From contig JBHLRP010000032.1 in the NCBI GenBank assembly GCA_048882485.1, forward strand, positions 1 to 34,705: a stretch of 34,705 nucleotides of DNA, written 5' to 3'. Under the pieces are notes generated by a model that saw nothing but the letters and a program-made list of their open reading frames with translations, made no database searches and had not been told where the DNA came from. This document shows, piece by piece, positions 4,866-34,705 of this stretch. Origin of the DNA: Candidatus Thorarchaeota archaeon (lineage in GTDB: Archaea; Asgardarchaeota; Thorarchaeia; Thorarchaeales; Thorarchaeaceae). Each line of letters opens with the position of its first letter. Position 1 is the stretch's first letter. A program made the translations under genes and the position numbers.

Positions 4866-6305
4866 CTACTTTGCTTTAGCTCTTTTGTCTATAATCTTCC
4901 GCATTTCTGCTTCCACATCTTTGCCCAGTGGCTCAACCTCATGACTTGAGAGAATCTCCTTTACTTGTTCCTTCGCCCTCTGGAACATATCTTTCGAGCC
5001 TCTCTTTTCCCATTCCGGTCTGGAAGCCCTTTCAGTCAACACAGGCTGCCATTGCTCCTCTAGTAGATGCTTCTTAGTAAATCTCAACGCATCTGGGGTG
5101 TTGAGATAGTTTTTCTCATGCCCTACTTTTGCTATAAGATCAGCAGCAAGAGTTTCTTTTGTCACCCTCATTCCTTTTGCGATTCGCTTTATGGCTCCAC
5201 AGATTTCATTGCTTATTCCGAACAACTCGTAGCTAGCGGTCACTCCAGCCTCCACTATTCCATATACTGCGTCATGAACCACATCAGCACCAGCAAGGGT
5301 TGCAACTAGGACATTGATGGTGTTCTCGTATACAGCTTGATGATCAGGAATCTTTGAGTCAATGACGCCTGCTGCACCATAATATGGAATCCCATAGAAT
5401 CTAGCCATCTGCGAAAACGCCGCATGAATCAGCCCATTCTCAGGCGACCCATAGGCAGCTGTACCATACCGCTGGTCAAGAATAGTTGCACAGGAACCCC
5501 ACATAATGGGTGTACCAGGTCCTACAAGCTGTGTCAGAACAACTATCACATGGTTCTCGACTATCCCCTGCACTATTGTTCCTGCTAGCGTAACCGGAGC
5601 ACTAGCACTGGCAAGAGCACCAGTACTGATGTCAAACGGTATCTTGTATTTCGCGCATTCCAGAATCATATCAATGATTTCCGGCGTATACTTGAGAGGG
5701 GGAACATTGTTGAAGCCTGTATCAATTAATGATGGATTCTTGATGAACTCCTCTTCACCCCCAGCCACAATCATTGACATTTTGATCACATCTCTCCAAC
5801 CATCGGGAGTTAATGCAACCAGGCTGAGATGCTTCTCAGCGTTCTTGAACATAGCCAAAGCCATTTCTTGCTCCCAGATGGTCTTCGACACATCTTGTGG
5901 AAGGATGTTTGGCTTGATGTAGTCTACAGTTGCGAAGTAATCTGCAAGAAGTGTGAACTCCTCTAGATCCTTCAGTGTAGATAGTCTTCGTTCACCCGTT
6001 TCCAAGTCTATAGTATAATGAGCTCCAAATGCATTCGTATAATATGACGCTCCATCTCCGATCACGAAATCGTACTTCGGATTTCGCGATGCCATCAAAT
6101 GCCTTCCAGGCGATTTCTGCAGAGCATCCTGCAACAGGCTCTCAGGGATTTTCACCACTTTGGACTTTTTATCTACATCTGCTCCTGCATCCCCGAGTAG
6201 TTTCAGTGCCTTATCATGTTGAACCATTACTCCAACATTTTCAAGAACCTCCATGGCTGCTACATGGATGTCGGCTATTTCGTTTCTACCTAGTAAATTA
6301 AACAT
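4866..6305 (-). CDS. Trimethylamine methyltransferase (MttB) superfamily, non-pyrrolysine
   Basis: APVTLAGTIVQ, PGTPI, GSPE, DSKIPDHQA, GIVEAG. No in-frame TAG; Val occupies the Pyl-equivalent position (AGVIDSK). Confidence 0.92.
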   Translation of the reverse strand: MFNLLGRNEIADIHVAAMEVLENVGVMVQHDKALKLLGDAGADVDKKSKVVKIPESLLQDALQKSPGRHLMASRNPKYDFVIGDGASYYTNAFGAHYTIDLETGERRLSTLKDLEEFTLLADYFATVDYIKPNILPQDVSKTIWEQEMALAMFKNAEKHLSLVALTPDGWRDVIKMSMIVAGGEEEFIKNPSLIDTGFNNVPPLKYTPEIIDMILECAKYKIPFDISTGALASASAPVTLAGTIVQGIVENHVIVVLTQLVGPGTPIMWGSCATILDQRYGTAAYGSPENGLIHAAFSQMARFYGIPYYGAAGVIDSKIPDHQAVYENTINVLVATLAGADVVHDAVYGIVEAGVTASYELFGISNEICGAIKRIAKGMRVTKETLAADLIAKVGHEKNYLNTPDALRFTKKHLLEEQWQPVLTERASRPEWEKRGSKDMFQRAKEQVKEILSSHEVEPLGKDVEAEMRKIIDKRAKAK

Positions 6306-19865: not shown

Positions 19866-20513
19866 ATGTGGGACAAAAAGAAAGCTCTGGAGTTGATACA
19901 GAAGACTGGGCTTATTCCAATAATCCGGGTCGATTCTTCCGAAACTGCAATGAAGGTCGCAGATGCATTCCTCAAGGGTGGAGTGAGAATTATTGAAGTC
20001 ACCTTTAGTGTTCCGGGGGCAACCGATGTAGTTCGACAGCTCACTGATGAACTAGGTGACAAGGTTCTGATTGGTACCGGAACGGTTCTCAACGCCAAGA
20101 TGGTTGACAATGCAGTGGCTGCAGGCAGTGAATTCATCGTAAGTCCGGGGTACTCAAGGGAGCTTATCGAAGCAACAAAAAAACACTCCAAGCCTTGCAT
20201 TCCTGGCGCAATGACACCAACAGAGATTCTTGATGCATATAATCTCGGTTCCGACGCAGTCAAGATTTTTCCATGCGGAAATCTTGGAGGAGCCAAATAC
20301 ATCAAGGCTGTAAGAGCACCGCTCCCACACATACCTCTTGTTCCTACAGGAGGTGTCAATCTAGAAACAGCTGGACCACTTTTGGAGGCAGGAGCCTTTG
20401 CATTGGGCGTAGGTAGCGCTATCACAGACAAGATGGCAATCAAGGAAGGTCGATTTGAGGTCATCACTGAGAATGTCAAGAAGTTTCTTGAAGTCGTCGG
20501 GAATTACAGATAG
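19866..20513 (+). CDS. eda: KDPG/KHG aldolase
   Basis: IEVT, GTGTV, FIVSP, PGAMTPTE, Schiff-base KIFP, PTGGV. Confidence 0.93.
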   Translation: MWDKKKALELIQKTGLIPIIRVDSSETAMKVADAFLKGGVRIIEVTFSVPGATDVVRQLTDELGDKVLIGTGTVLNAKMVDNAVAAGSEFIVSPGYSRELIEATKKHSKPCIPGAMTPTEILDAYNLGSDAVKIFPCGNLGGAKYIKAVRAPLPHIPLVPTGGVNLETAGPLLEAGAFALGVGSAITDKMAIKEGRFEVITENVKKFLEVVGNYR

Positions 20514-20587
20514 TTAATAGAGCCCAGTAGCTATAAAAGCCGTAATTATACGCTCTGCTTCAACACAGCCATTGGAGAGAGCTTGAG

Positions 20588-20914
20588 ATGGGTGACGATT
20601 TACTGGACCTCATGCGTGAACGAATCGCAATAGGTTTGACAAGGGAAAAGACAATAGAAGCTATTGACGGATGGGAGAGAACTGCACTCTTGATTCTGAA
20701 AGAGGGTGGCAAGTATAACTTCATCGTCAAGGATAACGACATCACAGTTCATGATGGCGAGATTCAAGACCCTGACATGACCATTCAAAGCGATGAGGAT
20801 ACAATCAGAAAGCTCTTCCTCGAGGAGATGAGTGCAGCAGGTGCTCTTCTCAAGAGGAAGCTCAAGGTTAAGGGGTCAACGGGCGACCTTATGAAGATAA
20901 GACACATTTTCTAA
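20588..20914 (+). CDS. SCP2 sterol/lipid-binding domain protein
   Basis: PDMTIQ...A..A....KLKVKG...LMKI pattern. Confidence 0.8.
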   Translation: MGDDLLDLMRERIAIGLTREKTIEAIDGWERTALLILKEGGKYNFIVKDNDITVHDGEIQDPDMTIQSDEDTIRKLFLEEMSAAGALLKRKLKVKGSTGDLMKIRHIF

Positions 20915-20941
20915 AATGCTACTGCTCACGGAGGCAACGAT

Positions 20942-22348
20942 TTGGACCAGCTAGTCTTCAAGAAACTGGAAGAGATCGTGGGAAAGGAATATGCCTCAAG
21001 AAGGGAAGATGTTCTCTTAGCATACTCTGTGTCAGCTTCGACAAGCTATGAACCAGTCTTGCCTGGTGCGGTGGTCCGGCCAGGAACTACGCAAGAAGTT
21101 TCACAGATTTTGAAGTTGGCCAATGAAAAGGAAATTCCAGTGATTCCAAGATCAGGCGGGTCCAGTCTCCAAGGAGAAGCCTTGCCAAAAGAGGGTAGCC
21201 TTGTAGTCGAACTGCTGAGATTAGACCAAGTAACCCTATTCGAGGACTTACGTTCAGTAACAGTTGGAGCTGGTGTGACATACGGCATGCTTGACAAGTT
21301 TCTCAAGAAGCATGACCTCTGGATACCTATCTATCCAGGCTCGTCACTCTCAGCAACTGTTGCAGGAAATGTTGCGGTCAACGGAGCGGGTTTTGGGTCA
21401 GCAAGATTCGGTTGTATTGCAGAACTTGTCTTTGGATTGGAAATAGTACTACCTGATGGAAGGATAATCCAAACCGGTTCCGAGGCCAATCCTAATGCCC
21501 CAGGTCCATTTCTTCGCTACGCCTTTGGCCCGGATCTCACTGGTCTATTCATTGGCTCGCTTGGGAGCTTTGGAATCATAACGAAGGTGTCTCTAAAGAC
21601 CCATAAGCGGATGCACCACTTTGACTATAACACATACGGCTTTTACGTCGCCGACGAGGCTGTAGATTTCTTGATTGCATTAAAGCAAAATGATGTGAGC
21701 TCTGTCTGGGCAGCAATCTATGAAGGTCAGATTCTTGACTTCTTCCTTGATATGGTAGGAGAAGAATATGGAGTCCCTAAGCATGATTGGCCCAAATTCA
21801 CGGTTTCACTTGTTCTAGGTGCGATCCGAGAAGACCAGCTGCTTAGCGATGTCAAGATGGCGAGGATGCTCTGCGAAAGCTGTGGAGGCTACATAATTGG
21901 AATCCGGGAGCTACCCAAGGGTGAATGGGATAATAGAATGTTAGAACTCGCTCGCTCATCATACATCCACAGTTGGCATTGGCGTATTCTTTATCACCAT
22001 CAAACCCCGTCGAATTGGCTTAGAACTCTGGAAGAACTCTGGTCAGTAACAGAAGAATACCGCATTCTAGCCCACACAGCAGGATTTCAATCGGGCCACT
22101 CCAGCTACAATTACTATCCGCAGTTATACTATGACCCTCAAGATGAAGAGCAGGAGCAGAAGGTACGAGATGCCCACAAAGATCTAGCTCGGCGCCTGTT
22201 CAAAACGGGAGCCGTTCCATTCAAGTTGGCCCCATATTGGATAGAAGGCGTAGAAGGAATGGCGGACTATCTAGAGCTCTTGAAAATGCTAAAGAAGTCA
22301 CTCGATCCCAAGGGAATAATGAATCCTGGTGTACTAGGAGGCATCTGA
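20942..22348 (+). CDS. FAD-binding oxidoreductase (VAO/PCMH, GlcD-like), paralog of 2814-4199
   Basis: PRSGGSS, ATVAGN, GLEIVLPDG, GPDLTGLFIGSLG, LDPKGIMNPG. Confidence 0.9.
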   Translation: MDQLVFKKLEEIVGKEYASRREDVLLAYSVSASTSYEPVLPGAVVRPGTTQEVSQILKLANEKEIPVIPRSGGSSLQGEALPKEGSLVVELLRLDQVTLFEDLRSVTVGAGVTYGMLDKFLKKHDLWIPIYPGSSLSATVAGNVAVNGAGFGSARFGCIAELVFGLEIVLPDGRIIQTGSEANPNAPGPFLRYAFGPDLTGLFIGSLGSFGIITKVSLKTHKRMHHFDYNTYGFYVADEAVDFLIALKQNDVSSVWAAIYEGQILDFFLDMVGEEYGVPKHDWPKFTVSLVLGAIREDQLLSDVKMARMLCESCGGYIIGIRELPKGEWDNRMLELARSSYIHSWHWRILYHHQTPSNWLRTLEELWSVTEEYRILAHTAGFQSGHSSYNYYPQLYYDPQDEEQEQKVRDAHKDLARRLFKTGAVPFKLAPYWIEGVEGMADYLELLKMLKKSLDPKGIMNPGVLGGI

Positions 22349-22365
22349 GTGTGACCGAGGTGGAC

Positions 22366-23511
22366 ATGGATGAACTCCTAGAGAATCTGGCTCAATGCCG
22401 CAGATGCGGAATCTGCCGGAATGCTGTATACGAGGAACTCGGATTTGATGGAGTTTGCCCAGTATGGAGAAACTCGAGCGGCTTTGAAACTAGCTTCATG
22501 AGAGGAAGGATTCAGGTTGCTCAGGCCCTTCTTGATGGAAGGTTGGAGAAGACAGCAGAGAATGTTGAGTCACTCTACACCTGCATGTTATGTGGAAATT
22601 GCACTGAGATATGCGCAGCTGAGTTTGACCCGAAGCAGACTCTGGAACAAGTCCGTCAAGTTTTGAATGATGTGCCGAATGAGTCGCGCGATGAAATTGC
22701 CGAACACATTCTCAAACATCTGAATCCCTACGAAGATGATAACAGCATCAGACGAAATTGGGTAGGAGAAGTAGGGTTTGACGTCCCAACGATGGCATCA
22801 ACAATCTACTATACTGGATGTACTGCAGGCATGCGACTTCCCAATATCGCCATCTCAACTGTCAGAATATTGAATGCAGCTGCCGAGGACTTTGGTGTAT
22901 TGGAGGAGGAACCGTGCTGCGGGTCTGTAATGATAAGGACGGGAAGAGTCGAGGATGCACGGGCTAATGCTGAGCGGATAGAGAAGGCCTTTGCTGAAGC
23001 CGGTGCAGAGCGCATAATTGTGTCATGTCCTGGATGCCTAAGAACACTGAAATTGGATTTTCCTGAACGCTTTGGTATCGAACTCCCTCAGGTAATTCAT
23101 ATCGTCGAATATGCTGCTGAACTCATAAGAAATGGTGATCTGAGCTTCAGAGGACGTGGAGAGAAAAGCAGGGTTACTTACCACGATCCTTGCCATCTTG
23201 GTAGAGGGCTTGGAATCTATGATGCACCACGTGAGATTCTTTCAGCAATTCCGGGCATAGAGCCTGTGGAGTTGGAAACAAAGAGAGAGGCAGCACTATG
23301 TTGCGGCGCCGGAGGAGGAGTGCGCAAATACGATCCAAATCTCTCCAAACGAATTGGGGCGGATAGGATTCGACAGGCAATAGAAGCAGGCGCAGACATC
23401 ATTGCAACTGCATGTCCTTTCTGTGTCAACAACCTAGATGCGGGAGCAAGTCAGGAAGGAAGCTCTATTGGAGTCGCCGATATTGTAGACCTATTGGCTG
23501 AGAGTCTCTGA
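22366..23511 (+). CDS. GlcF/HdrD-like Fe-S subunit with CCG domains, paralog of 1620-2813
   Basis: CRRCGIC...CP, CMLCGNC...C, CCG, CPGC, YHDPC, CCGAGGG, CPFC. ATG 22366 follows GAGGTG. Confidence 0.9.
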   Translation: MDELLENLAQCRRCGICRNAVYEELGFDGVCPVWRNSSGFETSFMRGRIQVAQALLDGRLEKTAENVESLYTCMLCGNCTEICAAEFDPKQTLEQVRQVLNDVPNESRDEIAEHILKHLNPYEDDNSIRRNWVGEVGFDVPTMASTIYYTGCTAGMRLPNIAISTVRILNAAAEDFGVLEEEPCCGSVMIRTGRVEDARANAERIEKAFAEAGAERIIVSCPGCLRTLKLDFPERFGIELPQVIHIVEYAAELIRNGDLSFRGRGEKSRVTYHDPCHLGRGLGIYDAPREILSAIPGIEPVELETKREAALCCGAGGGVRKYDPNLSKRIGADRIRQAIEAGADIIATACPFCVNNLDAGASQEGSSIGVADIVDLLAESL

Positions 23512-23526
23512 GCTGAGAAATAGATT

Positions 23527-23808
23527 CCTGAAGAAGAGGGGGACGCTGACCGGAGCCAAAGACTTGGTGCCCATCTGGGCATTTGAGGTCCACCCTCTCA
23601 ATTTGAACGTGAGTAAGTGGTGCTCCAAACCACGTGATACAACGCCGTTCTCTGAACACTGGGTGAGAGCCGAATCTCCCTACAGGAGGACATTCGGAAG
23701 GACGTTGAATCCGGTCACACACTCTTTTGTATGTGTGAGGAGCAACAGGCTTCAGCCAGACGTCCGACCAAAGAGTATGCGTCCTAGCAACATAAGCATT
23801 TCTTCTGG
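23527..23808 (+). ncRNA. Candidate structured non-coding RNA A (~280 nt, unassigned family; strand tentative)
   Basis: End-to-end pairing 23527-36/23799-808; GGACGC/GCGTCC; TGACCGGA/TCCGGTCA; several hairpins; a possible ACTCTTT/AAAGAGT pseudoknot. G-U pairs mostly favour +. The overlapping ORFs do not look like proteins. Confidence 0.55.
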
Positions 23809-23929
23809 ACGAAACCACCCCGAGGTCTCATACGTCTCACTAACGCACTATTATATGGTCATAAAACTTTAAAAGTACACTATGGGAATGCGGTCCCGAG
23901 CCTATACTGTTTAGTCAGAGGTGTATAGC

Positions 23930-24997
23930 ATGAATGGGATAAATGTAGCAATAGTGGGTGTAGGCAACTGCGCGAGCGCCCTAATCCAAGGGGTGGAATA
24001 CTATAAAGATGCAAAAGCTAGCGATGATCTGATAGGTCTTAGCCATCCAGATTTTGCTGGCTTTCATGTAAGAGACATCAAATTCGTGGCGGCTTTCGAT
24101 GTGGCTGAGGGAAAGGTTGGCGTAGACCTAGCAGATGCAATCTTTGCCAACCCCAACAATGTTATTCGATTCGCAGATGTTCCTAGGACCGGTGTGAAAG
24201 TAGAGAAAGGTCCTGTTCACGATGGTGTTGATGATATGCTTCGGGCATTGATCAAGGTTTCCAGTGAATCCGATTCAGATGTTGTCAAGATTCTTCGTGA
24301 TTCAGGTGCAGAAGTCGTCATTAACCTCTTGCCAGGATCTGCCGAGGAAGCAGCAAAGTTCTATGCTGGAGCCAGTCTTGAAGCTGAGTGTGCATTCATT
24401 AATGGCGCTCCAATACCGATAGCTTCTGACCAAGAATGGAGCAGCAAATTCGAAGAGAAAGGACTACCTCTGATTGGAGACGATCTTCAAGACCAGCTAG
24501 GCTCAACAGTGTTTCATAGGAACTTGCTACAGCTTCTTGTGGCTCGTGGTGTGCGTGTAGATAAAAGCTATCAGTTGGATGTAGGCGGAGGGGCTGAGTC
24601 ACTGGATTCACATTATCGGGGTCGCATGAGGAAGCGAGGAGTAAAGAGCAGTGCAATCAGTCAGGACCTACCTTATGACGCTCCTCTCGTGGCTGGCTCT
24701 TCAGATTTCGTTCCATTCATGGACAACAGCAGGGAGTCATATTTCTACATACATGGCCGCCAGTTTGGAGGCGCACCGATTAAGATTGATATCAGAATGG
24801 AAGTCACTGATGGTCCAAATGCAGGACCCATCCTGATGGATGCAATCCGCGGAGCGAAATTGGCCCTCAAGAGAGAGATTGGTGGAGCACTAGAATCAAT
24901 CTCTGCCTATGGATTCAAGATGCCTCCCAAACCTACAACTATGTATAGAGCTGAGAGATGGGTTGAGGAGTTTCTGCTTGGAAAGAGGAAACTTTAG
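23930..24997 (+). CDS. ino1: myo-inositol-1-phosphate synthase family, divergent
   Basis: GVGNCASALIQG, FVAAFDV..KVG.DL, CAFIN, IGDD, FKMPP. Several catalytic-region motifs are altered. Confidence 0.75.
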   Translation: MNGINVAIVGVGNCASALIQGVEYYKDAKASDDLIGLSHPDFAGFHVRDIKFVAAFDVAEGKVGVDLADAIFANPNNVIRFADVPRTGVKVEKGPVHDGVDDMLRALIKVSSESDSDVVKILRDSGAEVVINLLPGSAEEAAKFYAGASLEAECAFINGAPIPIASDQEWSSKFEEKGLPLIGDDLQDQLGSTVFHRNLLQLLVARGVRVDKSYQLDVGGGAESLDSHYRGRMRKRGVKSSAISQDLPYDAPLVAGSSDFVPFMDNSRESYFYIHGRQFGGAPIKIDIRMEVTDGPNAGPILMDAIRGAKLALKREIGGALESISAYGFKMPPKPTTMYRAERWVEEFLLGKRKL

Positions 24998-25005
24998 TCA
25001 TTATT

Positions 25006-25401
25006 TTATTCATGAGCTTTCATGTATTCAACCACGAGTCCCTTTAGCTCATCGAGTTTAGAGACGACCTTGAATTCGGTTTCTTCTCCAACCTCTTCTA
25101 GAATCTCGTTGAATCCAATCACGTTCTGGTATTCTTGCTCATGTTCCTCGCGAACGGCTTTCTTCTTGGCTGCCGGATCATAAACGACAATGAGATTCTC
25201 TGGCTCAAAATTGATGACTAGGCTCCGATCCAAATACTGAACCTTCTTGCATTTGGGGCATTGAACACGGTTTGCTTTACCAGCCTTCAGGTTCTTAACG
25301 AGGTCGCGGTCTTGGGAGAGGTCGATGTGATCAATAACGTCAAACTCGTACACATTCTTGCATTTCACACACCTGATTTCTGCAGTGCTTCTTCCTGCCA
25401 T
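25006..25401 (-). CDS. CpXC-domain (two CxxC) protein
   Basis: CVKC...CPKC with CpXC-like spacing; GGTGA RBS before ATG 25401. Confidence 0.7.
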   Translation of the reverse strand: MAGRSTAEIRCVKCKNVYEFDVIDHIDLSQDRDLVKNLKAGKANRVQCPKCKKVQYLDRSLVINFEPENLIVVYDPAAKKKAVREEHEQEYQNVIGFNEILEEVGEETEFKVVSKLDELKGLVVEYMKAHE

Positions 25402-25459
25402 CTTATCACCAGAGCGAAGCATTACATCGTTGTGAAGCTCTTAAGAGTTCCTACATCTG

Positions 25460-26086
25460 CTAATTCTGCTCTTCCTTCCATTCCTCAGGAGTGTCGGTTT
25501 CTTGATTAATGGGATCTTCATCAGACTTGCGTTTGAAAATGATTCCAAGAATGATGGCAGTCAATGCGATGGAGCCAAGAACACTTGGCATCGAACCGAA
25601 AAGCGAACTCACCGCTGATGCAATGAGTGCCCCTGGAATGGTGACTGCCACCTTCCCAATGTAATAGCTAGCAAAGAATTTTGGAACGCTATATTGAGTG
25701 AGCCCGCAGTAGATTACGATTGGATCGTCAGGCACTGGAGATCCGGCTGATAGGAGCAAAGCAATAGCCCCCCACTTTTCTACTCTCTCCCGCTCTAGGT
25801 CGATCTTCGCTAGCATACTCTCTGATAGAACAACACGCGATCCTCGCATTGCATAGTAAAGAATGACCTTTGATATTGCTGCAGCGAGGGCAACTACAAT
25901 CCCGATTTGAGCCGCAATTATGATGGCCTCAGAAAGGAGTCGCTCGCCAGGAAACATGAATAGATAAGCGACAGCCGCCAGCACCATATTGCTGGGGCTA
26001 ATAAACGGTATCAGATTGATTGCCAGGCAGACTATGAACAAACCTAGATAGCCCTGGAGTATCAGGTCTATGACTATGTCTTGCAT
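25460..26086 (-). CDS. VTT/DedA (SNARE-associated Golgi protein) family membrane protein
   Basis: NLIPFISP, SPVPDDP...G......KFF....GK. Confidence 0.8.
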   Translation of the reverse strand: MQDIVIDLILQGYLGLFIVCLAINLIPFISPSNMVLAAVAYLFMFPGERLLSEAIIIAAQIGIVVALAAAISKVILYYAMRGSRVVLSESMLAKIDLERERVEKWGAIALLLSAGSPVPDDPIVIYCGLTQYSVPKFFASYYIGKVAVTIPGALIASAVSSLFGSMPSVLGSIALTAIILGIIFKRKSDEDPINQETDTPEEWKEEQN

Positions 26087-26113
26087 GTCCCCTCAGCAAC
26101 TCACTGATTCCAA

Positions 26114-26545
26114 TCATGAATGCACATTCTCTATGTGGACATAGCTGACACCTTCTAGTGCAGCAAGTTCGTTCCTCAGATCATCCAAAGTATTTGTAAG
26201 CTGTCCAGGATTGAAGTAGCACTCATAGAAACATCTTGTGCCACGGAGGCAGACACCGGTTGAAAATAGCAAATCGACTAGGCCTGCTGACTTGAAGACC
26301 TGCGAGAGCTGTGTTAGGAAGTCATTTGTAAGTTTTTTAATCTCGACCGACAGAAAGCTTACCTCTTTGTCTTCGAGCGGGAAGATCTTGATGAGTCGGT
26401 CCTTGTGTACTAGCACCATCAACCCGTTATTGGTTCCCATGGCGTCCTTGAATTGTGCTGGAAACTTCACGGTCTCGTTGGCATCAAAAACGAGAACTCT
26501 GCCAGCCGTAGCTCCATCGTAGTCTTCAGACATCATATCACCCAT
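26114..26545 (-). CDS. Hypothetical protein, possible AbrB-like + ACT-like domains
   Basis: D.NETVKFPAQFKDAMG resembles the AbrB swapped hairpin. The C-terminal part has a beta-alpha-beta-beta-alpha-beta-like pattern ending LEGVSYVHI. Confidence 0.5.
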   Translation of the reverse strand: MGDMMSEDYDGATAGRVLVFDANETVKFPAQFKDAMGTNNGLMVLVHKDRLIKIFPLEDKEVSFLSVEIKKLTNDFLTQLSQVFKSAGLVDLLFSTGVCLRGTRCFYECYFNPGQLTNTLDDLRNELAALEGVSYVHIENVHS

Positions 26546-26737
26546 TCGAGTTTCCCCAGACTCCGCTGGTGAAGTCTAACATCCTAGGATTTACGTCACA
26601 CGAATATAAGTAAAGCTCCTATGATTGCGATGTAGAGGTAAAACACTTCTCAGACCTGTGCATATTCCCTCATCCGCTCAAATTTGAAAACGGTGCCCCT
26701 TTTGAGGACCCATGGGACACCAATCATCAGATGTAAG

Positions 26738-26992
26738 ATGAAGGATCCTAGGAGAGGCACATTGGAACGACATCGAGATGTGTCTGAACTCCGCATCCAG
26801 TATCTCTGTGAACATCGATTCTTATTACTACAAATGCGCCAAGAGAACTCCTCCGAAGCTAGCAGAGAAGGCGAACGACTTCATCGCGAAGTGGGGTTGA
26901 ATCCAAAACCTATCCGTTCGTTCAGTCGTTTGATTAGAGCATTGATTTTGATTGCCACATTGACAGCAGCTGTTCTATGGGCGGTGGGATGA
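26738..26992 (+). CDS. Cas4-like N-terminal segment with C-terminal TM helix
   Basis: VSELRIQYLCEHRFLL and GERLH match the Cas4/RecB-like N-terminal S-x-Y-x-C and G-x3-H motifs. It ends in a hydrophobic helix. Confidence 0.65.
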   Translation: MKDPRRGTLERHRDVSELRIQYLCEHRFLLLQMRQENSSEASREGERLHREVGLNPKPIRSFSRLIRALILIATLTAAVLWAVG

Positions 26993-27654
26993 CTCGAATG
27001 GACCAATTCACAAATGGAGTTCTACTTGCCATATTCATTGGAGGTGTCTTCGTCTTAATCTATATGAACTCCGGAGGAATCCTCCGTTCAAGTGGGAGGC
27101 GTATAAGAGGGGCGGTCTCAAGCAAATGGACACTTCAAGAATTCCTCAGATTAAGAAAGAAGCCAGAACCCGAAAGGTCCTTTCTATTCAGTGAGCAATC
27201 AGTCTATTCATTGGGACACAGGTTCAATGGTAGGTTTGACAACGCTGTTTTGCATTGGGAAGAGGTGCCAGTGCTTGATGCCATCATAGAACGGAAGTTC
27301 CCCACGAAACATATTCCACTTAAGCCCAGGAAAGAGGACTTCTTCCAAGCAGGGCTATACGCACTTGCCCTGATGGAAACTGGAGTTTCATGTGCCACCA
27401 CAAGGCTGGTTCTGGTTTATTGTTCGCAGAGAACTGCAAAGAATTGCATCGGGAAAAATCAGGCTGATTGCGTGTCTTGTGGAGATGGAATGTTGTATAG
27501 CAGAAGATTCAATCAGAAGCGAGTGTTGAAGGCCTTGGCAAAACTTGATGAGGTCTGGTATCAGGGGAGAAAACCGAAGGCCAGTCCTAGCGGAGAGAAG
27601 TGCAGAGTCTGTCCGTATGGAAGAAACGGCATCTGCAACCGCTCAGCTGCATAG
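26989..27654 (+). CDS. Cas4-like PD-(D/E)XK nuclease core with N-terminal TM helix
   Basis: SEQ, GRFD, IIERK, QAGLY and C-terminal KCRVCPY....IC. Its ATG overlaps the upstream TGA (ATGA). Confidence 0.78.
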   Translation: MTRMDQFTNGVLLAIFIGGVFVLIYMNSGGILRSSGRRIRGAVSSKWTLQEFLRLRKKPEPERSFLFSEQSVYSLGHRFNGRFDNAVLHWEEVPVLDAIIERKFPTKHIPLKPRKEDFFQAGLYALALMETGVSCATTRLVLVYCSQRTAKNCIGKNQADCVSCGDGMLYSRRFNQKRVLKALAKLDEVWYQGRKPKASPSGEKCRVCPYGRNGICNRSAA

Positions 27655-27692
27655 GCAAAAGAGTAATCTCTCTAGATGTGGAGACTAAAAGC

Positions 27693-28106
27693 ATGCAAGA
27701 GATGAGAGAACTGCTGAATTACGTGATCAAAGCCAAGCGACTTATCAAAGAAATATACTACACAACTCGAAATGAGAGTCTTAAGGCCGATGCAAAGGAA
27801 CTTGTCGCAGCCATAATTGCAGTTCAGAGGACTCTTGAACACATTCTGGTTTTGAAGCGGAGGTCGAGGACGGCTAAGAGGGTTCTTGGCGATCGAAAAG
27901 CCGAAATGGCTGTCAGGCGATGGAGCGCAGGACTTCCCAGAAGAGTAAGAGATTATGTTGAGAAGCAGAAGAAACTGGAGCAACATCATCTGCACAAATA
28001 TCAAGTCGTTCTCCTTCAGTACTTGGAGAACATGGGCAAAGAGATTGTAGCATGGGCTGAGGATATAGACATGCTTCGCGAAATGCCACGCATTCCGAAG
28101 GAATAA
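27693..28106 (+). CDS. Hypothetical basic alpha-helical protein
   Basis: Protein-like amphipathic helical ORF; start placed at ATG 27693. Confidence 0.6.
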   Translation: MQEMRELLNYVIKAKRLIKEIYYTTRNESLKADAKELVAAIIAVQRTLEHILVLKRRSRTAKRVLGDRKAEMAVRRWSAGLPRRVRDYVEKQKKLEQHHLHKYQVVLLQYLENMGKEIVAWAEDIDMLREMPRIPKE

Positions 28107-28109
28107 TGG

Positions 28110-29189
28110 TTACCAACGAAGCCGCGCAGCAACTCCTCCGAATGATTTCAGTTGCGCACCTGATTCTGTCTGAGCAGAGAATACCATCAATTCAGAGCCA
28201 TACTCACCAATCTCATTATATAGAGAATCTATGAGGTCAGTGTTATCTTCAGTGACCATTATTGTTTCAACGCGACCAGCCCTGAGAGCATCCAGCACTT
28301 CATTTTTGCCATATGCAACATTACTCTCCCCTTTCATGAGAGCTTCCATGAATCCATCCCATATCTGACGCTCAGCATAAATCTCGGTTTCTTTGAGAAG
28401 CCGGGATGCCTCTTTCATTGCTTGATAGAGTCCAGTTTCATCTATGACGCTTACTGGAATAATGGTTTCTGCAATCTTCTCTCGAATTCGATAGTCTAGG
28501 TCACCCTTCTCCAGAAATTCCTGACATCTTATTGTGTTACCGCCAAGCACAATCGCATCCACGTTGTCAATATTATCAAGTAGGAGGTCCTTCAGCATTC
28601 TACCTACATGTCGGAAGAATTCCAACATCTTTTCTTCTCTGATACGCAAATATCGCTTAGCACTCTGACCGCCTGCACGAGTCTTTCCTATGATGTAGAA
28701 GTCCTCATCGCGGACGAGTTCCATGTGCTTGCCGCGCAGATATCCAATGGTGACCTTTCCGCCCTCAATCAAAGTGATGACGACTAGGCTCTTGGGCAGG
28801 GTCATTTCTTCAAGCTCATCAGTTATAAACTCACGACCGCAGATGTAAGTGAACTGTGAGATTGGTGCAGGAGGAATGACTATATCCCTGATTTCTTCGG
28901 TTGTTCCACCTTCTTCGATAATGCCAAAGAAGAATGCCATGCCATTCTCAGGCATAGCTGTGATCATATTGAGCTCACTCAGAATTGCTGTGAGATTGTC
29001 TTGCACATTCTTTCTGTTCGCCTTGCTCTTGATGTTGTCAGCCCCAGCCAGCTCCGCTTTTACAAATCCAGTAACATCAACTAGGCTTTTTGCCGGCGGG
29101 ATGTAGAGCGTGGTGAAAGAGCTATGCCTACCTTGGAGTGCCTTGAGCTGTTGGACCTTCCTCTTGAGCTTTTGACGCTCGGCAGACAA
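28110..29189 (-). CDS. prf1: Peptide chain release factor aRF1 (eRF1 family)
   Basis: NIKS, YICGREF (YxCxxxF), GGQS, FGGVAARLRW. TTG start after GAGGTGA. Confidence 0.88.
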   Translation of the reverse strand: MSAERQKLKRKVQQLKALQGRHSSFTTLYIPPAKSLVDVTGFVKAELAGADNIKSKANRKNVQDNLTAILSELNMITAMPENGMAFFFGIIEEGGTTEEIRDIVIPPAPISQFTYICGREFITDELEEMTLPKSLVVITLIEGGKVTIGYLRGKHMELVRDEDFYIIGKTRAGGQSAKRYLRIREEKMLEFFRHVGRMLKDLLLDNIDNVDAIVLGGNTIRCQEFLEKGDLDYRIREKIAETIIPVSVIDETGLYQAMKEASRLLKETEIYAERQIWDGFMEALMKGESNVAYGKNEVLDALRAGRVETIMVTEDNTDLIDSLYNEIGEYGSELMVFSAQTESGAQLKSFGGVAARLRW

Positions 29190-29208
29190 TCTATTTCACC
29201 TCTTATTC

Positions 29209-29304
29209 TCTGCTGAATTGACGGATTTCTATAAGAACTAGTGGCCGTCAGGCAACCGCCACGGTCATCGCATGTAAGTCCGTATTTTAACATTACGTAG
29301 CAGA
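29209..29304 (-). promoter_or_regulatory. Structured 5' leader of aRF1 (nested inverted repeats)
   Basis: TCTGCT/AGCAGA, ACGGA/TCCGT, TGGCCGT/ACGGTCA and GGC/GCC are nested between a TTTTTAA box (29328-34) and the RBS. Confidence 0.4.
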
Positions 29305-29490
29305 CATTCCCAAGGAACGGCGACAAGTTAAAAAGGTAGACACAACTGAACCTTCAGTAGATAGGTGAAGAAGGGATGTACCGCCAATTTACATCATTAT
29401 AGCAATGGATTGTTTCTTCTATGACCTTAGTTTGTATAAGGCGGATCATTCCAAGCATCAAAATACAAGCTCAGGAGTTTTGATAGACAT

Positions 29491-31008
29491 ATGACCGAGC
29501 AGCTGACAAAAGGAGAAAGAACAGTTCTTGAGCAATTAGTCGATAGCAGTGAGAGAATAACATCGAAAATCATCGCCAAAAGACTTGGCGAAAATGAAGA
29601 GCGCGTTATATCAATTTTCAACTCCCTCTCACAAAAGGGGCTAATTGAACTCAATACGGAAGAGATTGCATCTTACTACCTCACGGAGGAGGGGCTAGAC
29701 TATGCAGAGAATGGGCTTCCTGAGGTCAGACTGTTTCGTGCAGTTGTGAAGCTTGGTGGACGAGCCAAGTTGGATGATGCTGTATCTACTAGCGGGATAC
29801 CGCAGGAGTCCAAAGGAATTGCTCTGAGCTGGACAAGAAAGAATGGATGGCTCGCAATATCGAAGGAAAGCGGTGCCACAGTTCTTTCCGCAAATGCTGA
29901 AAGTATTGAAACCCCAATTGAGAGCGTGCTTTCAAAGATTCTCAGGGGAGAGCATAGATTCCCAAGAAGGTATGAGGCATCGGTGAAGACTGCTTTGGAG
30001 AGATCGCTCATCACAGCCAAAACATCGAAGATGTTTCTGGCAAAGGTTGCTGAAGAAACGCGAGCAGCAGCAGAGACGCTGCTTAGCGAAGAAGTCAGCG
30101 GGATCATAGATTTGACACCGGAAATGCTGACCGCCCGAACATGGGAAGGGAAAGTATTCAGACCATTCAATGTCGAGTTGGAGCCTGCCTACGGATATTA
30201 TGGTAAGAAGCATCCTTATGTCGAGTTCAATGATTGGCTGAGAGAAATCATGATTGGACTTGGATTTACAGAATGGGATGGCCCTTTTGTGGAAACCGAG
30301 TTCTGGGCACACGATACATTGTTCGTACCTCAGGATCATGTTGCCCGTGAAGTCCAAGACCAGTTTAGGATTGAATCACCATATGATCACGGAGATATCG
30401 GCGACGCTAAATACTATCGTGCTGTGAAGGCAGTACATGAGAATGGAGGAGATACAGGATCGATGGGATGGGACTGGCCATTCAGCAAAGAGATTTCAAC
30501 ACGGCTCTGCCTTCGTCCTCATACCACACCAGTTTCGATGAGATATCTTTGGGAACATAGAGAGAGCCCTCAGAAGATGTTCATAATAGATCGCAACTTC
30601 AGGTCAGAAACTCTGAGTGCAACGCATGCACAGGAGTTCAATCAGTGCGAGGGAATAATCATGGATAAGGGTCTCACATTGAGGGATCTCCTAGGATATC
30701 TGAAATCTATCTGCAATGCTGTGGGAGTTGAAAAGCTGAAGTTCAAGCCAGGCCAGTTCCCATTCACAGAACCAAGCGTGGAAACCTTTGGCAAGCATGA
30801 GAAACTCGGCTGGATTGAGCTTGGTGGATCAGGAATCTTCAGACCCGAGGTGACTTATCCTCTTGGAATCAAGGACACAGTTCTAGCATGGGGTTTAGGC
30901 TCCGGACGTCTGTATATGGCCGCCATGGGAATCAATGACATTAGAGACCTATTCTCCAGGGATCTCGGTTGGCTGAGAAAGGCCAGCTTCATTCGGGAGG
31001 TGCTATAG
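29491..31008 (+). CDS. pheS: Phenylalanyl-tRNA synthetase alpha subunit (archaeal/eukaryotic type)
   Basis: N-terminal wHTH extension, LRPHTT, FRSET, FPFTEPS, GIFRPEV, AWGLG. Confidence 0.96.
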   Translation: MTEQLTKGERTVLEQLVDSSERITSKIIAKRLGENEERVISIFNSLSQKGLIELNTEEIASYYLTEEGLDYAENGLPEVRLFRAVVKLGGRAKLDDAVSTSGIPQESKGIALSWTRKNGWLAISKESGATVLSANAESIETPIESVLSKILRGEHRFPRRYEASVKTALERSLITAKTSKMFLAKVAEETRAAAETLLSEEVSGIIDLTPEMLTARTWEGKVFRPFNVELEPAYGYYGKKHPYVEFNDWLREIMIGLGFTEWDGPFVETEFWAHDTLFVPQDHVAREVQDQFRIESPYDHGDIGDAKYYRAVKAVHENGGDTGSMGWDWPFSKEISTRLCLRPHTTPVSMRYLWEHRESPQKMFIIDRNFRSETLSATHAQEFNQCEGIIMDKGLTLRDLLGYLKSICNAVGVEKLKFKPGQFPFTEPSVETFGKHEKLGWIELGGSGIFRPEVTYPLGIKDTVLAWGLGSGRLYMAAMGINDIRDLFSRDLGWLRKASFIREVL

Positions 31009-32673
31009 ATGATAGTGGAAAGCAGAATCGATGACCTCCTTGCACTAATCGGGAAGAAGATGTCAATGAAGAAGCTCGAAGACGCCTTGTTTCTTATCAA
31101 GGCAGAAATCGAAAGGATTGATGGCAACATCATTGAGATTGAGATAAATCCTGACAGGCAGGATATGCTTTCAACAGAAGGTGTAGCAAGGGCTGTTAGA
31201 TCATTCCTTCGAATTGATTCAGGACTTCGGGACTATAGGGTGAAGAAATCAGGACTTCAGGCACTTGTCAAACCTGGTCTCGCAAAGATACGACCATATC
31301 TAGTATGCTCAATTGTGAAAGGAGTCGAAACAAGCGATGAATTGATCAAGGAGTATATGCATCTTCAAGAGGCACTCACATCGACTCATGGAAGAAACAG
31401 AAAGAAGGCTAGCATAGGCCTCTATGTTTTCGATGAGATGGAATTCCCTCTAATCTATAGCCCTGAAAAGCCAGAAAAAATCAGGTTCGTTCCATTAGGC
31501 TATGAGATTGAGATGGATGGCCCAACTATCATCTCAGACCATGAGAAAGGGATTGATTATGGCCCAATCATTTCAGGTTTCAAGAAATGGCCTCTGCTCC
31601 ACGATTCCGGGGGAAAGGTATTGAGCCTCCCTCCAATTATTAACAGCAATCACCTAGGCCGAATAACTACCGAGACAAACAATCTCTTTGTAGAGGTGAC
31701 TGGCACACATCTACCCACAATTCATCAGGCACTGAACATTATGACCGCTTCACTGGCAGAGAGAGGTGGTAGAGTTGAATCGCTCACTGTTGTCTATCCT
31801 GACGGCACCGAGGATGAAACGCCCAATTTCTCACCGGAAATCATGATGGTGTCCATAGATGAGGTCAATCAATTGACTGGACTAGGTCTTGATAAAGACG
31901 AGATCATTGATACGCTGAGCAGGACCGGATACAATGCGAAACTCCGAAAGGGTGGACAATTTGAGGTTCAAATCCCAAGCTACCGAGTTGATGTCTTGCA
32001 CCCTGTCGATATCATTGAAGATATAGCAATTGGCTATGGTTTTGACAGAATAGTACCCGCCATGCCACAGACGATGACCACCGGCAAAGCGAAGCCAGTG
32101 ACTGGAATGAGGAATAAGGTACGTGACCTCATGGTTGGAGCAGGATATCAAGAGATTATGAGTTACATCATGAGTTCGCCAGACCTATTGAATAAGAAAG
32201 TGCTCAGAAACCGACCATTGGTCGTCACTGGAAATCCCAAAAGCAGGGACTATTCTGTTCTGAGGAACTCACTGCTCCCAATTGCTCTTGGCTTTGCTGC
32301 TCAAAATCAACATGCGGAGTATCCACAGAAAATCTTCGAAGTGGGAGATATTGCAATTCCTGATGAGATGATGGAGACCCGAATTCGGCAGATCTCATCT
32401 GTGTGTGGACTTGTTACAGATACAGCCGTCAACATCACGGACTTGGCAACTGAGATAGGATTCCTCCTTAGGAATCTGGGATTAGATGGACGTTTTGCCT
32501 ATAGAAGACGGGAGGATCCGACTTTTATCGAGGGAAGAAGTGCAGACATCCTGCTGGATGGGGAACCAATTGGTTTGTTTGGAGAGGTATCTCCAGAAGT
32601 TCTCGCCAATCTTGAGCTGGGTACTCCAACTTTGGCCTTTGAGATATTCCTTCCAAGGGATGGCAAATGGTAG
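31009..32673 (+). CDS. pheT: Phenylalanyl-tRNA synthetase beta subunit
   Basis: DMLSTEG, RKKASIG, LSLPPIINS, RVDVLHPVDIIEDIAIGYG, LRNSLLP. Confidence 0.96.
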   Translation: MIVESRIDDLLALIGKKMSMKKLEDALFLIKAEIERIDGNIIEIEINPDRQDMLSTEGVARAVRSFLRIDSGLRDYRVKKSGLQALVKPGLAKIRPYLVCSIVKGVETSDELIKEYMHLQEALTSTHGRNRKKASIGLYVFDEMEFPLIYSPEKPEKIRFVPLGYEIEMDGPTIISDHEKGIDYGPIISGFKKWPLLHDSGGKVLSLPPIINSNHLGRITTETNNLFVEVTGTHLPTIHQALNIMTASLAERGGRVESLTVVYPDGTEDETPNFSPEIMMVSIDEVNQLTGLGLDKDEIIDTLSRTGYNAKLRKGGQFEVQIPSYRVDVLHPVDIIEDIAIGYGFDRIVPAMPQTMTTGKAKPVTGMRNKVRDLMVGAGYQEIMSYIMSSPDLLNKKVLRNRPLVVTGNPKSRDYSVLRNSLLPIALGFAAQNQHAEYPQKIFEVGDIAIPDEMMETRIRQISSVCGLVTDTAVNITDLATEIGFLLRNLGLDGRFAYRRREDPTFIEGRSADILLDGEPIGLFGEVSPEVLANLELGTPTLAFEIFLPRDGKW

Positions 32674-32674
32674 C

Positions 32675-32691
32675 GGGGTCAATTAGACCCC
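32675..32691 (+). terminator. GC hairpin immediately after the pheT stop (possible terminator/processing signal)
   Basis: GGGGTC-AATTA-GACCCC. Confidence 0.3.
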
Positions 32692-32780
32692 TCAGCTACT
32701 GCCCGCAGAAAAGATATAAGAACTAGCAGACAGATTCTGGCATCAGGTGCAAAGCGCACCCTGAAAAGGGGCACCAATGA

Positions 32781-33380
32781 ATGACGGAAGGTCCAACACC
32801 CTCAGCAGCAGACTCCTCAGACGACTCGTCTGATGAGTTTAAGTTCCGAGTAGTTCTTCTGGGTGAGGCCGCCGTCGGCAAGACTTCACTAATTAGAAGG
32901 TTCACTGAGAACTCGTTTGACGAGGACTATAAGCAGACCATTGGAACCACCTTTGCCTCTAAGGATGTTAGCGTGACCGATGATGAGGGCCAGACCAGAC
33001 AAGTACGATTAATAGTCTGGGACATGGGGGGTCAGACCACTTATCGAGAGTTGCGTAGACAGTTTATGAAGGGTTCATCAGGAGCAATAATTGCATATGA
33101 TGTGACACGTCCTGAAACATTCATGGCTATGAACAACTGGTTCGAATCATTCCGTGAAACGTGTCCAAATGCGGCTGTTGTGATTGCAGCCAACAAGGTT
33201 GACCTATTGGATAGTAGAATAGTTCCCGTGGAACCCGGATTGATGTTACGTGACTGGTTTCAAGCTGATTACTATGAAACGAGCGCAAAAACTGGAGCTG
33301 CTGTCACTGACGTATTTGACAAGCTAGCTAAGCTCGTCTTGAGACAGACCCGAGCCGAGAAGAAGAGCTCTGAGATGTAA
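32781..33380 (+). CDS. Rab/Ras-like small GTPase (eukaryotic signature protein)
   Basis: G1 GEAAVGKT, G2 TIG, G3 WDMGGQ, G4 NKVD, G5 ETSAK. No C-terminal Cys. Confidence 0.93.
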   Translation: MTEGPTPSAADSSDDSSDEFKFRVVLLGEAAVGKTSLIRRFTENSFDEDYKQTIGTTFASKDVSVTDDEGQTRQVRLIVWDMGGQTTYRELRRQFMKGSSGAIIAYDVTRPETFMAMNNWFESFRETCPNAAVVIAANKVDLLDSRIVPVEPGLMLRDWFQADYYETSAKTGAAVTDVFDKLAKLVLRQTRAEKKSSEM

Positions 33381-33414
33381 CTCATTCAACACATACTGCA
33401 AAGGAGAAACAAAG

Positions 33415-33816
33415 GTGCGTGTCCGAGACTTCATGACGTCTCTGATTGTCACATCAGAGGCTGAAACACCGGTAAAAGAAGCGGCGAAGCTTATGGCAGC
33501 TGAGGACATAGGCAGTCTCATTGTGACGAAGGGCGATGTCCTAGCAGGCATGATAACTAGAAAGGAGATTATCGGTGCACGGCTGCTCTCGGACGATGCA
33601 TATGGTTCACTCACTGTCGAGGATGTTATGACAAGTCCTGTCATCACGATAAGTCCAGATGCTGATTTAGGTCAGACCATAGCTGTAATGAATCAGGCAG
33701 GTGTGAGGTGTCTTCCCGTTATAGAAGGGGATTCGATTATCGGCGTAGTGAGTACTAGTGACGTGATTCGAGTTCTAGCAACGATGAAGCATCTTGCTGA
33801 CAGCGCTCCCGGTTAG
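33415..33816 (+). CDS. CBS-pair (Bateman) domain protein
   Basis: VRDFMT, IGSLIV, GMIT, VEDVMT, LPVI, GVVS..D. Confidence 0.92.
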   Translation: MRVRDFMTSLIVTSEAETPVKEAAKLMAAEDIGSLIVTKGDVLAGMITRKEIIGARLLSDDAYGSLTVEDVMTSPVITISPDADLGQTIAVMNQAGVRCLPVIEGDSIIGVVSTSDVIRVLATMKHLADSAPG

Positions 33817-33874
33817 TGAGGGCTTTAAATTGCCAATGTAGGATTAACTAGTAGCTAGGTGAGGACATATAGCT

Positions 33875-33967
33875 CAAAGTGGTGAGAGCCAGCAAGGCTT
33901 CGTTGGGTGTGGTATCTTTGGTAACAAAATACCAGATCCCTGCTAGCAACCCACCGCATTGCTTTTT
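33875..33967 (+). ncRNA. Candidate structured non-coding RNA B (~95 nt three-way junction)
   Basis: TTTAAA box at 33824. CAAAGTGGTG/CACCGCATTG closing helix, GAGCC/GGCTT hairpin, and a GTTG..TGGTAT-TTTG-GTAA-CAAA-ATACCA..CAAC arm with a GNRA loop, followed by T5. Confidence 0.55.
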
Positions 33968-34055
33968 GACACAACTATACTAAAGCATTTTGACTGCCCT
34001 CTCCACCTGTTCTCAGATTGACAATAACTATTAGGTATGTTGATAATCCTATCGC

Positions 34056-34316
34056 ATGGGCAGAAAGACATACAAGGATAGCAATGGGTATCTTCGTTTC
34101 AAGGATTCTGGTAGGCTAGTACACAGGTGGGTTGCTGAGAAGAAGTTGGGCCGACGACTTCGTTCGAATGAAGTAGTTCATCATAAGAACAAGATTAGAG
34201 GGGATAACCGCTCAAACAACCTGCAAGTGTTTTCATCTCAGGCGCGTCACCGGGCTCATCATATGAAAAAGGCGTGGACTCGAACACGAAGAAGCAGAAC
34301 AAGAAAACGATGGTAA
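34056..34316 (+). CDS. Small HNH endonuclease (HNH_3-like)
   Basis: NGY, VHRWVAE..LGR.L...EVVHHKN..R.DNR..NL, with a highly basic tail. Confidence 0.85.
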   Translation: MGRKTYKDSNGYLRFKDSGRLVHRWVAEKKLGRRLRSNEVVHHKNKIRGDNRSNNLQVFSSQARHRAHHMKKAWTRTRRSRTRKRW

Positions 34317-34327
34317 TGCTATGCAGT

Positions 34328-34705
34328 TTACTCCGAAACCCCTTTAGCTCTTCGCGGTGTTTGCTTCAGCGATTCTGCATAAACTCGTTTTAGGTATTGC
34401 CTCATAACCTCGGAAGTGGTGACTGGATAGTCACTCACTTTCTCTCTCGTTGTCTTGAAGGAGAGGTCGATGTGGCTCAGTTCCTTCTGAACCTTCTCCA
34501 AATCCCAGGTGGAGATTTCAAGGGGCATCTTCAATTTCGTCAATATTACAAAGCCATATGCAGTGAGGAGAAGGGGCTCTAGGTCCACTATTCCATCCGA
34601 GATTTGCACCGCTGTTTCAAGAATCTCCTCTCTGCGACGCTTGGCAATGTCAGTGATTAATACAGCCGCCATCCCTTTGCGCATCCTTTCGACGTCAAGC
34701 AGGAC
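34328..34705 (-). CDS. C-terminal part of a hypothetical protein (ORF open to the window edge)
   Basis: The frame is open from 34705 (VLLDVERMRKG...). AVLITD...SDGIVDL weakly recalls the end of a RecA/KaiC-type domain. Confidence 0.55.
   Translation of the reverse strand, partial: VLLDVERMRKGMAAVLITDIAKRRREEILETAVQISDGIVDLEPLLLTAYGFVILTKLKMPLEISTWDLEKVQKELSHIDLSFKTTREKVSDYPVTTSEVMRQYLKRVYAESLKQTPRRAKGVSE

Follow-up and report, generated by a model that had tools for sequence, protein, structure and literature searches.

Two separate and unrelated genes for stand-alone non-coding RNAs are very probably encoded on the minus strand of the window studied here, a stretch of 34,705 nucleotides (nt) that covers positions 1 to 34,705 of contig JBHLRP010000032.1 (assembly GCA_048882485.1) of Candidatus Thorarchaeota archaeon. 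The organism belongs to the Asgard archaea, the closest known relatives of eukaryotes. The two genes, here named RNA A and RNA B, lie in element A (23527-23808) and element B (33875-34017). The two elements are independent of each other, conserved, structured, non-coding and present in a single copy, and their evolution fits RNAs made from the minus strand.

An initial annotation, made from the sequence alone, had read both elements as plus-strand members of one new RNA family, perhaps circularly permuted or circular. Its observation that the elements are intergenic, conserved and structured is confirmed by BLAST searches across relatives and by covariation, and its motifs are in place; the motif sharing is not above chance and the pairings it proposed fail. 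Its interpretation stands as far as the elements are structured RNAs of no known family, and falls for homology, permutation, the shared stem, the strand and the circle. Two RNA families absent from Rfam 15 are added, with corrected strand, ends, promoters and folds, and the claim of a permuted family, which would have been the more surprising outcome, is removed.

Structure and covariation of the two RNAs

RNA A folds into a multi-helix junction closed by P1 and P2, which pair the 5' and 3' ends. The RNA runs from GGACG at the 5' side (23765-23761) to CGUCC (23545-23541), followed by the tail CCCUCUUCUU. In the closing region, P1 is formed by GGACG..UGGCU and GGUCA.CGUCC, and P2 by GCC and GGC. 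P3 (UGCUCC/GGAGCA) holds within it a variable hairpin and the helices P5, P6 and P7, which meet in a three-way junction; P8 and the 3' third, which is highly conserved, come next. Among the hairpins of RNA A, conservation is highest in P6 and P7 (23650..23697), see Table 1, and the 10-mer GGTGAGAGCC (23662-23671), discussed below, straddles the boundary between them.

Support for this fold comes from covariation among 45 orthologues, in which 92.2% of the cells are paired and both sides change in 39 of 49 pairs. The covariation score of 0.443 compares with at most 0.109 in slid controls, and it is reached by none of 500 shuffles. A 117-residue open reading frame (ORF) runs across RNA A on the minus strand. 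It was rejected as protein-coding, as it lacks codon periodicity (0.108 / 0.121 / 0.130) and the insertions and deletions within it are almost never multiples of 3.

RNA B is a single long stalk, P1-P2-P3. P1 (GGUGGG/CYCACC) is followed by a 2x1 loop and by P2 (GCUAGCAGGG/CCUUGCUGGC), to which most other genera add the helix GUCAU/AUGAC. The stalk ends in the apical variable hairpin P3, with consensus GGUAY/RUACC (GGUAU/AUACC here), and an invariant C-rich bulge, UACCACACCCAA (plus strand 33903-33914), lies on its 3' side. In an alignment of 31 rows, 95% of the cells are paired and both sides change in 8 of 15 pairs. A diverse set (n=16) has 18 pairs, nine of them compensatory.

Strand, putative promoters and ends

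Both elements had been assigned to the plus strand, an assignment that the alignments overturn. On the minus strand the consensus fold of RNA A reaches -42.4 kcal/mol, its covariation term is favourable and 21 pairs are compensatory, against -27.7 kcal/mol and an unfavourable covariation term on the plus strand; for RNA B the corresponding values are -19.3 and -9.8. Wide alignments read on the minus strand have G.U and A.C cells in a ratio of 240:25 in A and 75:5 in B. The same bias is found in the helices of A that are predicted on both strands, where 54 A.C cells, equivalent to G.U on the minus strand, stand against 14 G.U cells.

Conserved boxes lie upstream of both RNAs on this strand. The motif (A)nnCTTATGT stands at -31 to -24 from GGACG, counted from the first base of the closing helix, in 43 of 43 A orthologues that could be anchored, and aCCTyTTyTT comes after the last base of that helix. 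In RNA B, 29 orthologues have aAAAnnCTTTAGTA at positions -36 to -23 relative to GGUGGG. A motif of the same type, AAAnGCTT(T)A, also precedes the genes of tRNA-Arg, tRNA-SeC, tRNA-Phe and the RNase P RNA in this genome, i.e., the box ahead of RNA A is of the type seen at tRNA and RNase P genes. Judging by motif, position and conservation, we infer that the upstream boxes are promoters made of a transcription factor B recognition element (BRE) and a TATA box. Each RNA would then have a BRE/TATA promoter of its own, located about 26 nt ahead of the closing helix, and would end in a T-rich tract. This arrangement, with the promoter at about -26 from the first structured base, the T-rich tract after the last one and both kept in orthologues, is that of a stand-alone archaeal RNA gene.

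Some points weigh against this reading of two unrelated minus-strand genes. The ends and the strand of RNA A and RNA B are ones that we infer from alignments and motifs. Pairing of the candidate helices P9 and P10, located in the 3' third of RNA A, reaches only 64% when the model-fitted alignment is used. It is also a mild coincidence that the 10-mer common to A and B falls where each RNA is best conserved. Finally, on the plus strand of A, CUCUGAAC...GGUGAGAG could form a motif with tandem G.A pairs resembling a kink-loop (K-loop), and the pairing of GACUUGG with UUGAGGUC uses G.U on that strand.

The last point brings up plus-strand transcription, in which RNA A would carry an L7Ae-type K-loop (CUGA opposite GUGAGA) and be a box C/D-like or kink-turn (K-turn) RNA. 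Both CUCUGAAC and GGUGAGAG are invariant, tandem sheared G.A pairs are possible there, and a weak C/D-like match to sR2 is found at 23494-23551 (plus strand, 14.6 bits, E 0.86). The sR2 match, which extends from the last part of the CCG gene into the tail of RNA A, is probably noise. However, the G.U:A.C ratios strongly favour the minus strand, also in the helices common to both strand folds, the fold energies and covariation terms are better there, the conserved TATA box and T-tract fit only that strand, and the transcribed strand has no C box. We therefore consider plus-strand transcription very unlikely and describe both RNAs as minus-strand genes.

Distribution and genomic context

BLAST matches to element A and element B come from most members of the genus and extend to several further genera, with one match per genome. 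Covariance models were built from these matches, one for A (R2) and two for B (R1 and the broader R3). RNA A (R2) is present in 69 of the 87 genomes of the class, which come from 15 of the 17 genera; of 24 high-quality genomes, 22 have it. RNA B is detected in 43 of the 87 genomes with R1 and in 57 with R3, from 11 of the 17 genera. In a phylum sample of 151 genomes, RNA A is found in 24 of 26 genomes of its own family, and neither RNA was found in any of the 124 genomes from 26 other families. Both RNAs are confined to one family of Thorarchaeota.

Every genome has one locus per covariance model. The elements had also been proposed to be a small mobile RNA, and a miniature inverted-repeat transposable element, the end of an insertion sequence or another repeat was considered here as well. 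As A and B are each single-copy by both BLAST and covariance model, a mobile repeat is excluded. One genome has a further, partial match to RNA A, which covers model positions 60-133 at the end of a contig (G076:C292:6-79) and may be a fragment copy or an assembly duplicate.

The genes flanking the two elements are listed in Table 1. The inositol-1-phosphate synthase gene ino1 is divergent from RNA A in 28 of 30 loci, the remaining two being cut by contig ends, and the CCG gene is usually convergent with it. The neighbours of RNA B change from genus to genus, and the HNH gene accompanies B only within this genus; a general link between the two was rejected. No gene lies downstream of RNA A or RNA B on the same strand in this genome, as A converges on the CCG gene and B on the CBS gene, therefore neither RNA is a leader here. 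On the same ground, and given the varying neighbours of B, a riboswitch or 5' leader was rejected.

The elements could be imagined to act in cis, as the 3' untranslated region of the CCG or CBS gene, as the leader of ino1 or the HNH gene, or as protein-binding DNA. The constant divergent arrangement of A and ino1, and that of B and the HNH gene throughout the genus, are in line with this. So is one arrangement seen in another genus (L120:1109-1441 (-) and relatives), where RNA B is followed at 60-70 nt by a gene of the YgbA_NO family (110 residues) in the same orientation; with this orientation and spacing, RNA B could be co-transcribed with it there. However, covariation reflects selection on RNA pairing, each element has what appears to be its own promoter at a fixed distance, the neighbours of B differ between genera and no minus-strand gene follows either RNA in this genome. 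In addition, one genus of the same family (G058, L136:1376-1500) has ino1 with an upstream gap of 125 nt and without RNA A; RNA B was also not found there. A search for RNA A beside ino1 in that genus and in the sister family found none. A cis-acting role thus has little chance of being correct, and stand-alone RNA genes are preferred.

The ino1 promoter region (23846-23875, plus strand), which has a AAAACTTTAAAAG box, shows about 97% identity between several genera, a level well above that of its flanks, and may hold a regulator site.

The relationship between RNA A and RNA B

The motifs reported as common to A and B were all verified in both elements (Table 1), and the second, weaker block, GCATTT(T)GA..CCCTCTC.., is likewise present where it had been located. 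They had been taken as evidence of homology. The best collinear chain of shared words of at least 6 nt scores 33, against 21 +/- 6.7 in dinucleotide shuffles. Without correction for the many intergenic pairs open to comparison, this score is reached by 12 of 300 shuffles and a 10-mer is found in 15 of 300. Among random 143-mers of the same genome (n=3991), again uncorrected, 4.4% chain equally well with A and 3.5% share at least a 10-mer. Aligned locally, RNA A and RNA B have nothing better than the 10-mer itself in common, and 3.8% of random 82-mers do as well. GGTGAGAGCC occurs 8 times in the genome where 5.4 occurrences are expected. In BLAST searches of the home genome, neither element recovers the other at E<=10. 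The motifs common to A and B are chance matches and a putative common archaeal promoter.

This is also seen when the motifs are placed on the folds. GCATT(T) falls at the BRE/TATA junction of the putative promoters of both RNAs: in A it coincides with the promoter, and in B its second occurrence, GCATT(TT), is the promoter and at the same time the start of the supposedly permuted block. In A, CTAGCAAC lies in the unconserved spacer between TATA box and start and varies among close relatives. AGCAA..AGGCTTC forms the 5' strand of P2/P3 in RNA A and the 3' strand of P2 in RNA B. The 10-mer, GGCUCUCACC on the RNA strand, falls in RNA B on the 3' strands of P2 and P1, whereas its place in RNA A is the P6/P7 boundary together with the loop of P7.

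The covariance models give the same answer. With filters off and cut-offs of E<=10 or E<=1, R1 finds only B (108 bits) and the reverse strand of B itself in the whole window. R2, searched over 20000-34705, finds only A (240 bits), with B absent among 69 matches at E<=10. R3 finds only B in the window and in 13 A loci of other genera.

Permutation was proposed from the second block, which lies 5' of the core in A and 3' of it in B. In B this block is the putative promoter followed by unconserved upstream DNA, which can be aligned in the closest relatives only and has already diverged between members of the genus. A stem of GAGCC with GGCTT, closing a variable insert, had been proposed for both elements, and it does not covary in either. 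In A it is paired in 48.6% of cells (45 orthologues), with covariation not above controls, and it clashes with P6 and P7, which are both well supported. In B it is paired in 82.5%, with covariation equal to that of shuffles. The GTTG/CAAC closure of a long arm also does not covary in the B alignments. As for a circular RNA, inspection of the consensus folds shows 2x1 internal loops in the closing helices (UC/G in A, UU/U in B) and not the 3-4-3 bulge-helix-bulge. The reportedly permuted signal recognition particle (SRP) RNA of Thermoproteus tenax and the archaeal circles processed at a bulge-helix-bulge are the model behind the permutation idea; unlike these, A and B have no moved block and have 2x1 loops in place of the 3-4-3 motif.

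A and B could also be unrelated by descent and be read by one common partner through a shared module (GGCUCUCACC or an exposed CACC). The 10-mer is almost invariant in both families, and C-rich segments of the CACC type are exposed in both RNAs. However, CACC is in a loop in A and base-paired in P1 in B, the frequency of the 10-mer in the genome is close to random, and the complementarity of the conserved loops to 23S rRNA is no better than that of shuffled queries. A shared partner is accordingly hard to credit. Least probable of all, and close to negligible, is one homologous family, whether permuted, circular or joined by the GAGCC/GGCTT stem with its variable insert: the collinear motifs are real and the 10-mer is conserved in both families, but none of the three models ever finds the other RNA, about 4% of random segments are equally similar, the stem lacks covariation, the 10-mer has different structural places, and what remains of the sharing is promoter or unconserved sequence. 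Two unrelated families are therefore kept. The case shows that a shared promoter and one chance 10-mer are able to imitate homology.

Table 1. Positions of RNA A, RNA B, their putative promoters, the motifs compared between the elements and the flanking genes.
Feature	Position	Strand	Basis or remark
RNA A gene, about 236 nt	23531..23766	-	Consensus fold, covariation, conserved putative promoter and T-tract
RNA A P7, CUCU / loop CACC..GGUUC / AGAG	23650-23669	-	100% paired, 4/4 pairs covary
RNA A P6, CCGAAU-G-UCC .. GGA-G-AUUCGG	23670-23697	-	97% paired, 7/9 pairs covary
RNA A putative promoter: TATA box CTTATGTT (plus strand AACATAAG, 23789-23796), purine-rich BRE-like GAAGAAATG upstream	23789..23805	-	Motif, conserved distance
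RNA B gene, about 82 nt	33876..33957	-	Consensus fold, covariation, conserved putative promoter
RNA B putative promoter: BRE AAAA and TATA box CTTTAGTA (plus strand TACTAAAGCATTTT)	33978..33991	-	Conserved distance
Rest of second block in B (CCCTCTC, GTTCTCAGA)	33992..34017	.	Outside the RNA, unconserved, upstream of the putative promoter
GGTGAGAGCC, 10-mer	23662 in A, 33881 in B		Plus-strand coordinates; position verified
AGGCTTC (of AGCAA..AGGCTTC)	23747 in A, 33895 in B		Position verified
CTAGCAAC	23784 in A, 33943 in B		Position verified
GCATT	23796 in A, 33956 in B		Position verified
CCG/4Fe-4S gene	22237-23511	+	Flanks element A
Inositol-1-phosphate synthase gene ino1	23921-24997		Flanks element A
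CBS-domain gene	33415-33816	+	Flanks element B
HNH_3 endonuclease gene, 86 residues	34056-34316	+	Flanks element B, divergent

Comparison with known RNA families

The initial annotation could not place the elements among tRNA, 5S, SRP and RNase P RNAs, riboswitches or small ribozymes, and the scan against Rfam 15 agrees. At E<=10 both elements have only noise-level matches to small nucleolar RNAs, and ARAGORN finds no tRNA in the window. A literature search for surveys of Asgard non-coding RNA or for such RNAs found none.

An identity as RNase P or SRP RNA was rejected, as there is no Rfam match at E<=10 and the canonical genes of this genome are on other contigs (RNase P RNA on C110, 162.7 bits; SRP RNA on C58, 90.3 bits). 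RNA A nevertheless resembles the archaeal SRP (7S) RNA (RF01857) and RNase P RNA (RF00373) in size, in the helix that closes its ends, in its multi-helix junction and in being single-copy. It differs from them in having no Rfam match and in being confined to one Thorarchaeota family. A reading of the plus strand as RNase MRP-like, with CR-I and CR-V, was dropped after the minus-strand assignment.

Archaeal box C/D and H/ACA guide small RNAs, including the three-hairpin Pf7/Afu4 type, are likewise small stand-alone intergenic RNA genes, and the plus-strand reading of A mimics their K-loop. Unlike these, the transcribed strand has neither C nor usable D boxes and no ACA after a hairpin. A box C/D RNA was rejected as neither RNA has a C box (RUGAUGA) and the single CUGA of A is inside P1/P2, and a box H/ACA RNA was rejected as there is no ACA in the last 15 nt. 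The internal loop of RNA B has 0-4 nt, against 7-13 nt for H/ACA RNAs, and its upper stem has no K-turn. The closing helix around the junction of A also differs from tandem H/ACA hairpins.

OLE, GOLLD, ROOL and raiA are large bacterial non-coding RNAs that are long, heavily structured and lineage-restricted, and their function was unknown at discovery. RNA A is comparable to these in being long, heavily structured, strongly covarying and lineage-restricted. It is archaeal, far smaller than GOLLD or ROOL and has neither sequence nor structure similarity to this group in the Rfam scan. RNA B can be compared, as an analogy only, to RsaE/RoxS of Firmicutes, which is a short stand-alone RNA with an invariant C-rich single strand on a stable stalk.

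Possible roles

It can be speculated that RNA A is bound by protein and serves as the stable scaffold of a ribonucleoprotein, in which the invariant internal loop of P6 and the hairpin loop of P7 would be binding sites or sites of tertiary contact. RNA B could act in trans as a small RNA whose C-rich bulge is available to either a G-rich partner or a protein. We put these roles forward tentatively and hold them to be somewhat improbable as they stand. A more specific proposal would make RNA A the RNA part of an undescribed ribonucleoprotein that only this Thorarchaeota family has, maybe with a functional tie of RNA A to ino1, and RNA B a second, independent new regulatory RNA; this we judge clearly unlikely. 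With its 236 nt, its strong covariation and its presence in nearly every genome of one family, RNA A is, together with RNA B, a concrete target for transcript mapping and ribonucleoprotein purification.

Other RNA features of the window and the assembly

This assembly has an incomplete or unusual set of RNA genes: ARAGORN reports only 19 tRNA genes, the archaeal 16S model gives no match, and the 23S rRNA is present (C34:29135-32216). The sole Rfam match in the window that passes a gathering threshold is PYLIS_3 at 5267-5366 (minus strand; 46.7 bits, gathering 38), inside an MttB-like ORF (4866-6305). The match starts with GUC where the model has UAG, and it looks like a non-pyrrolysine MttB picked up through homology of the coding sequence.

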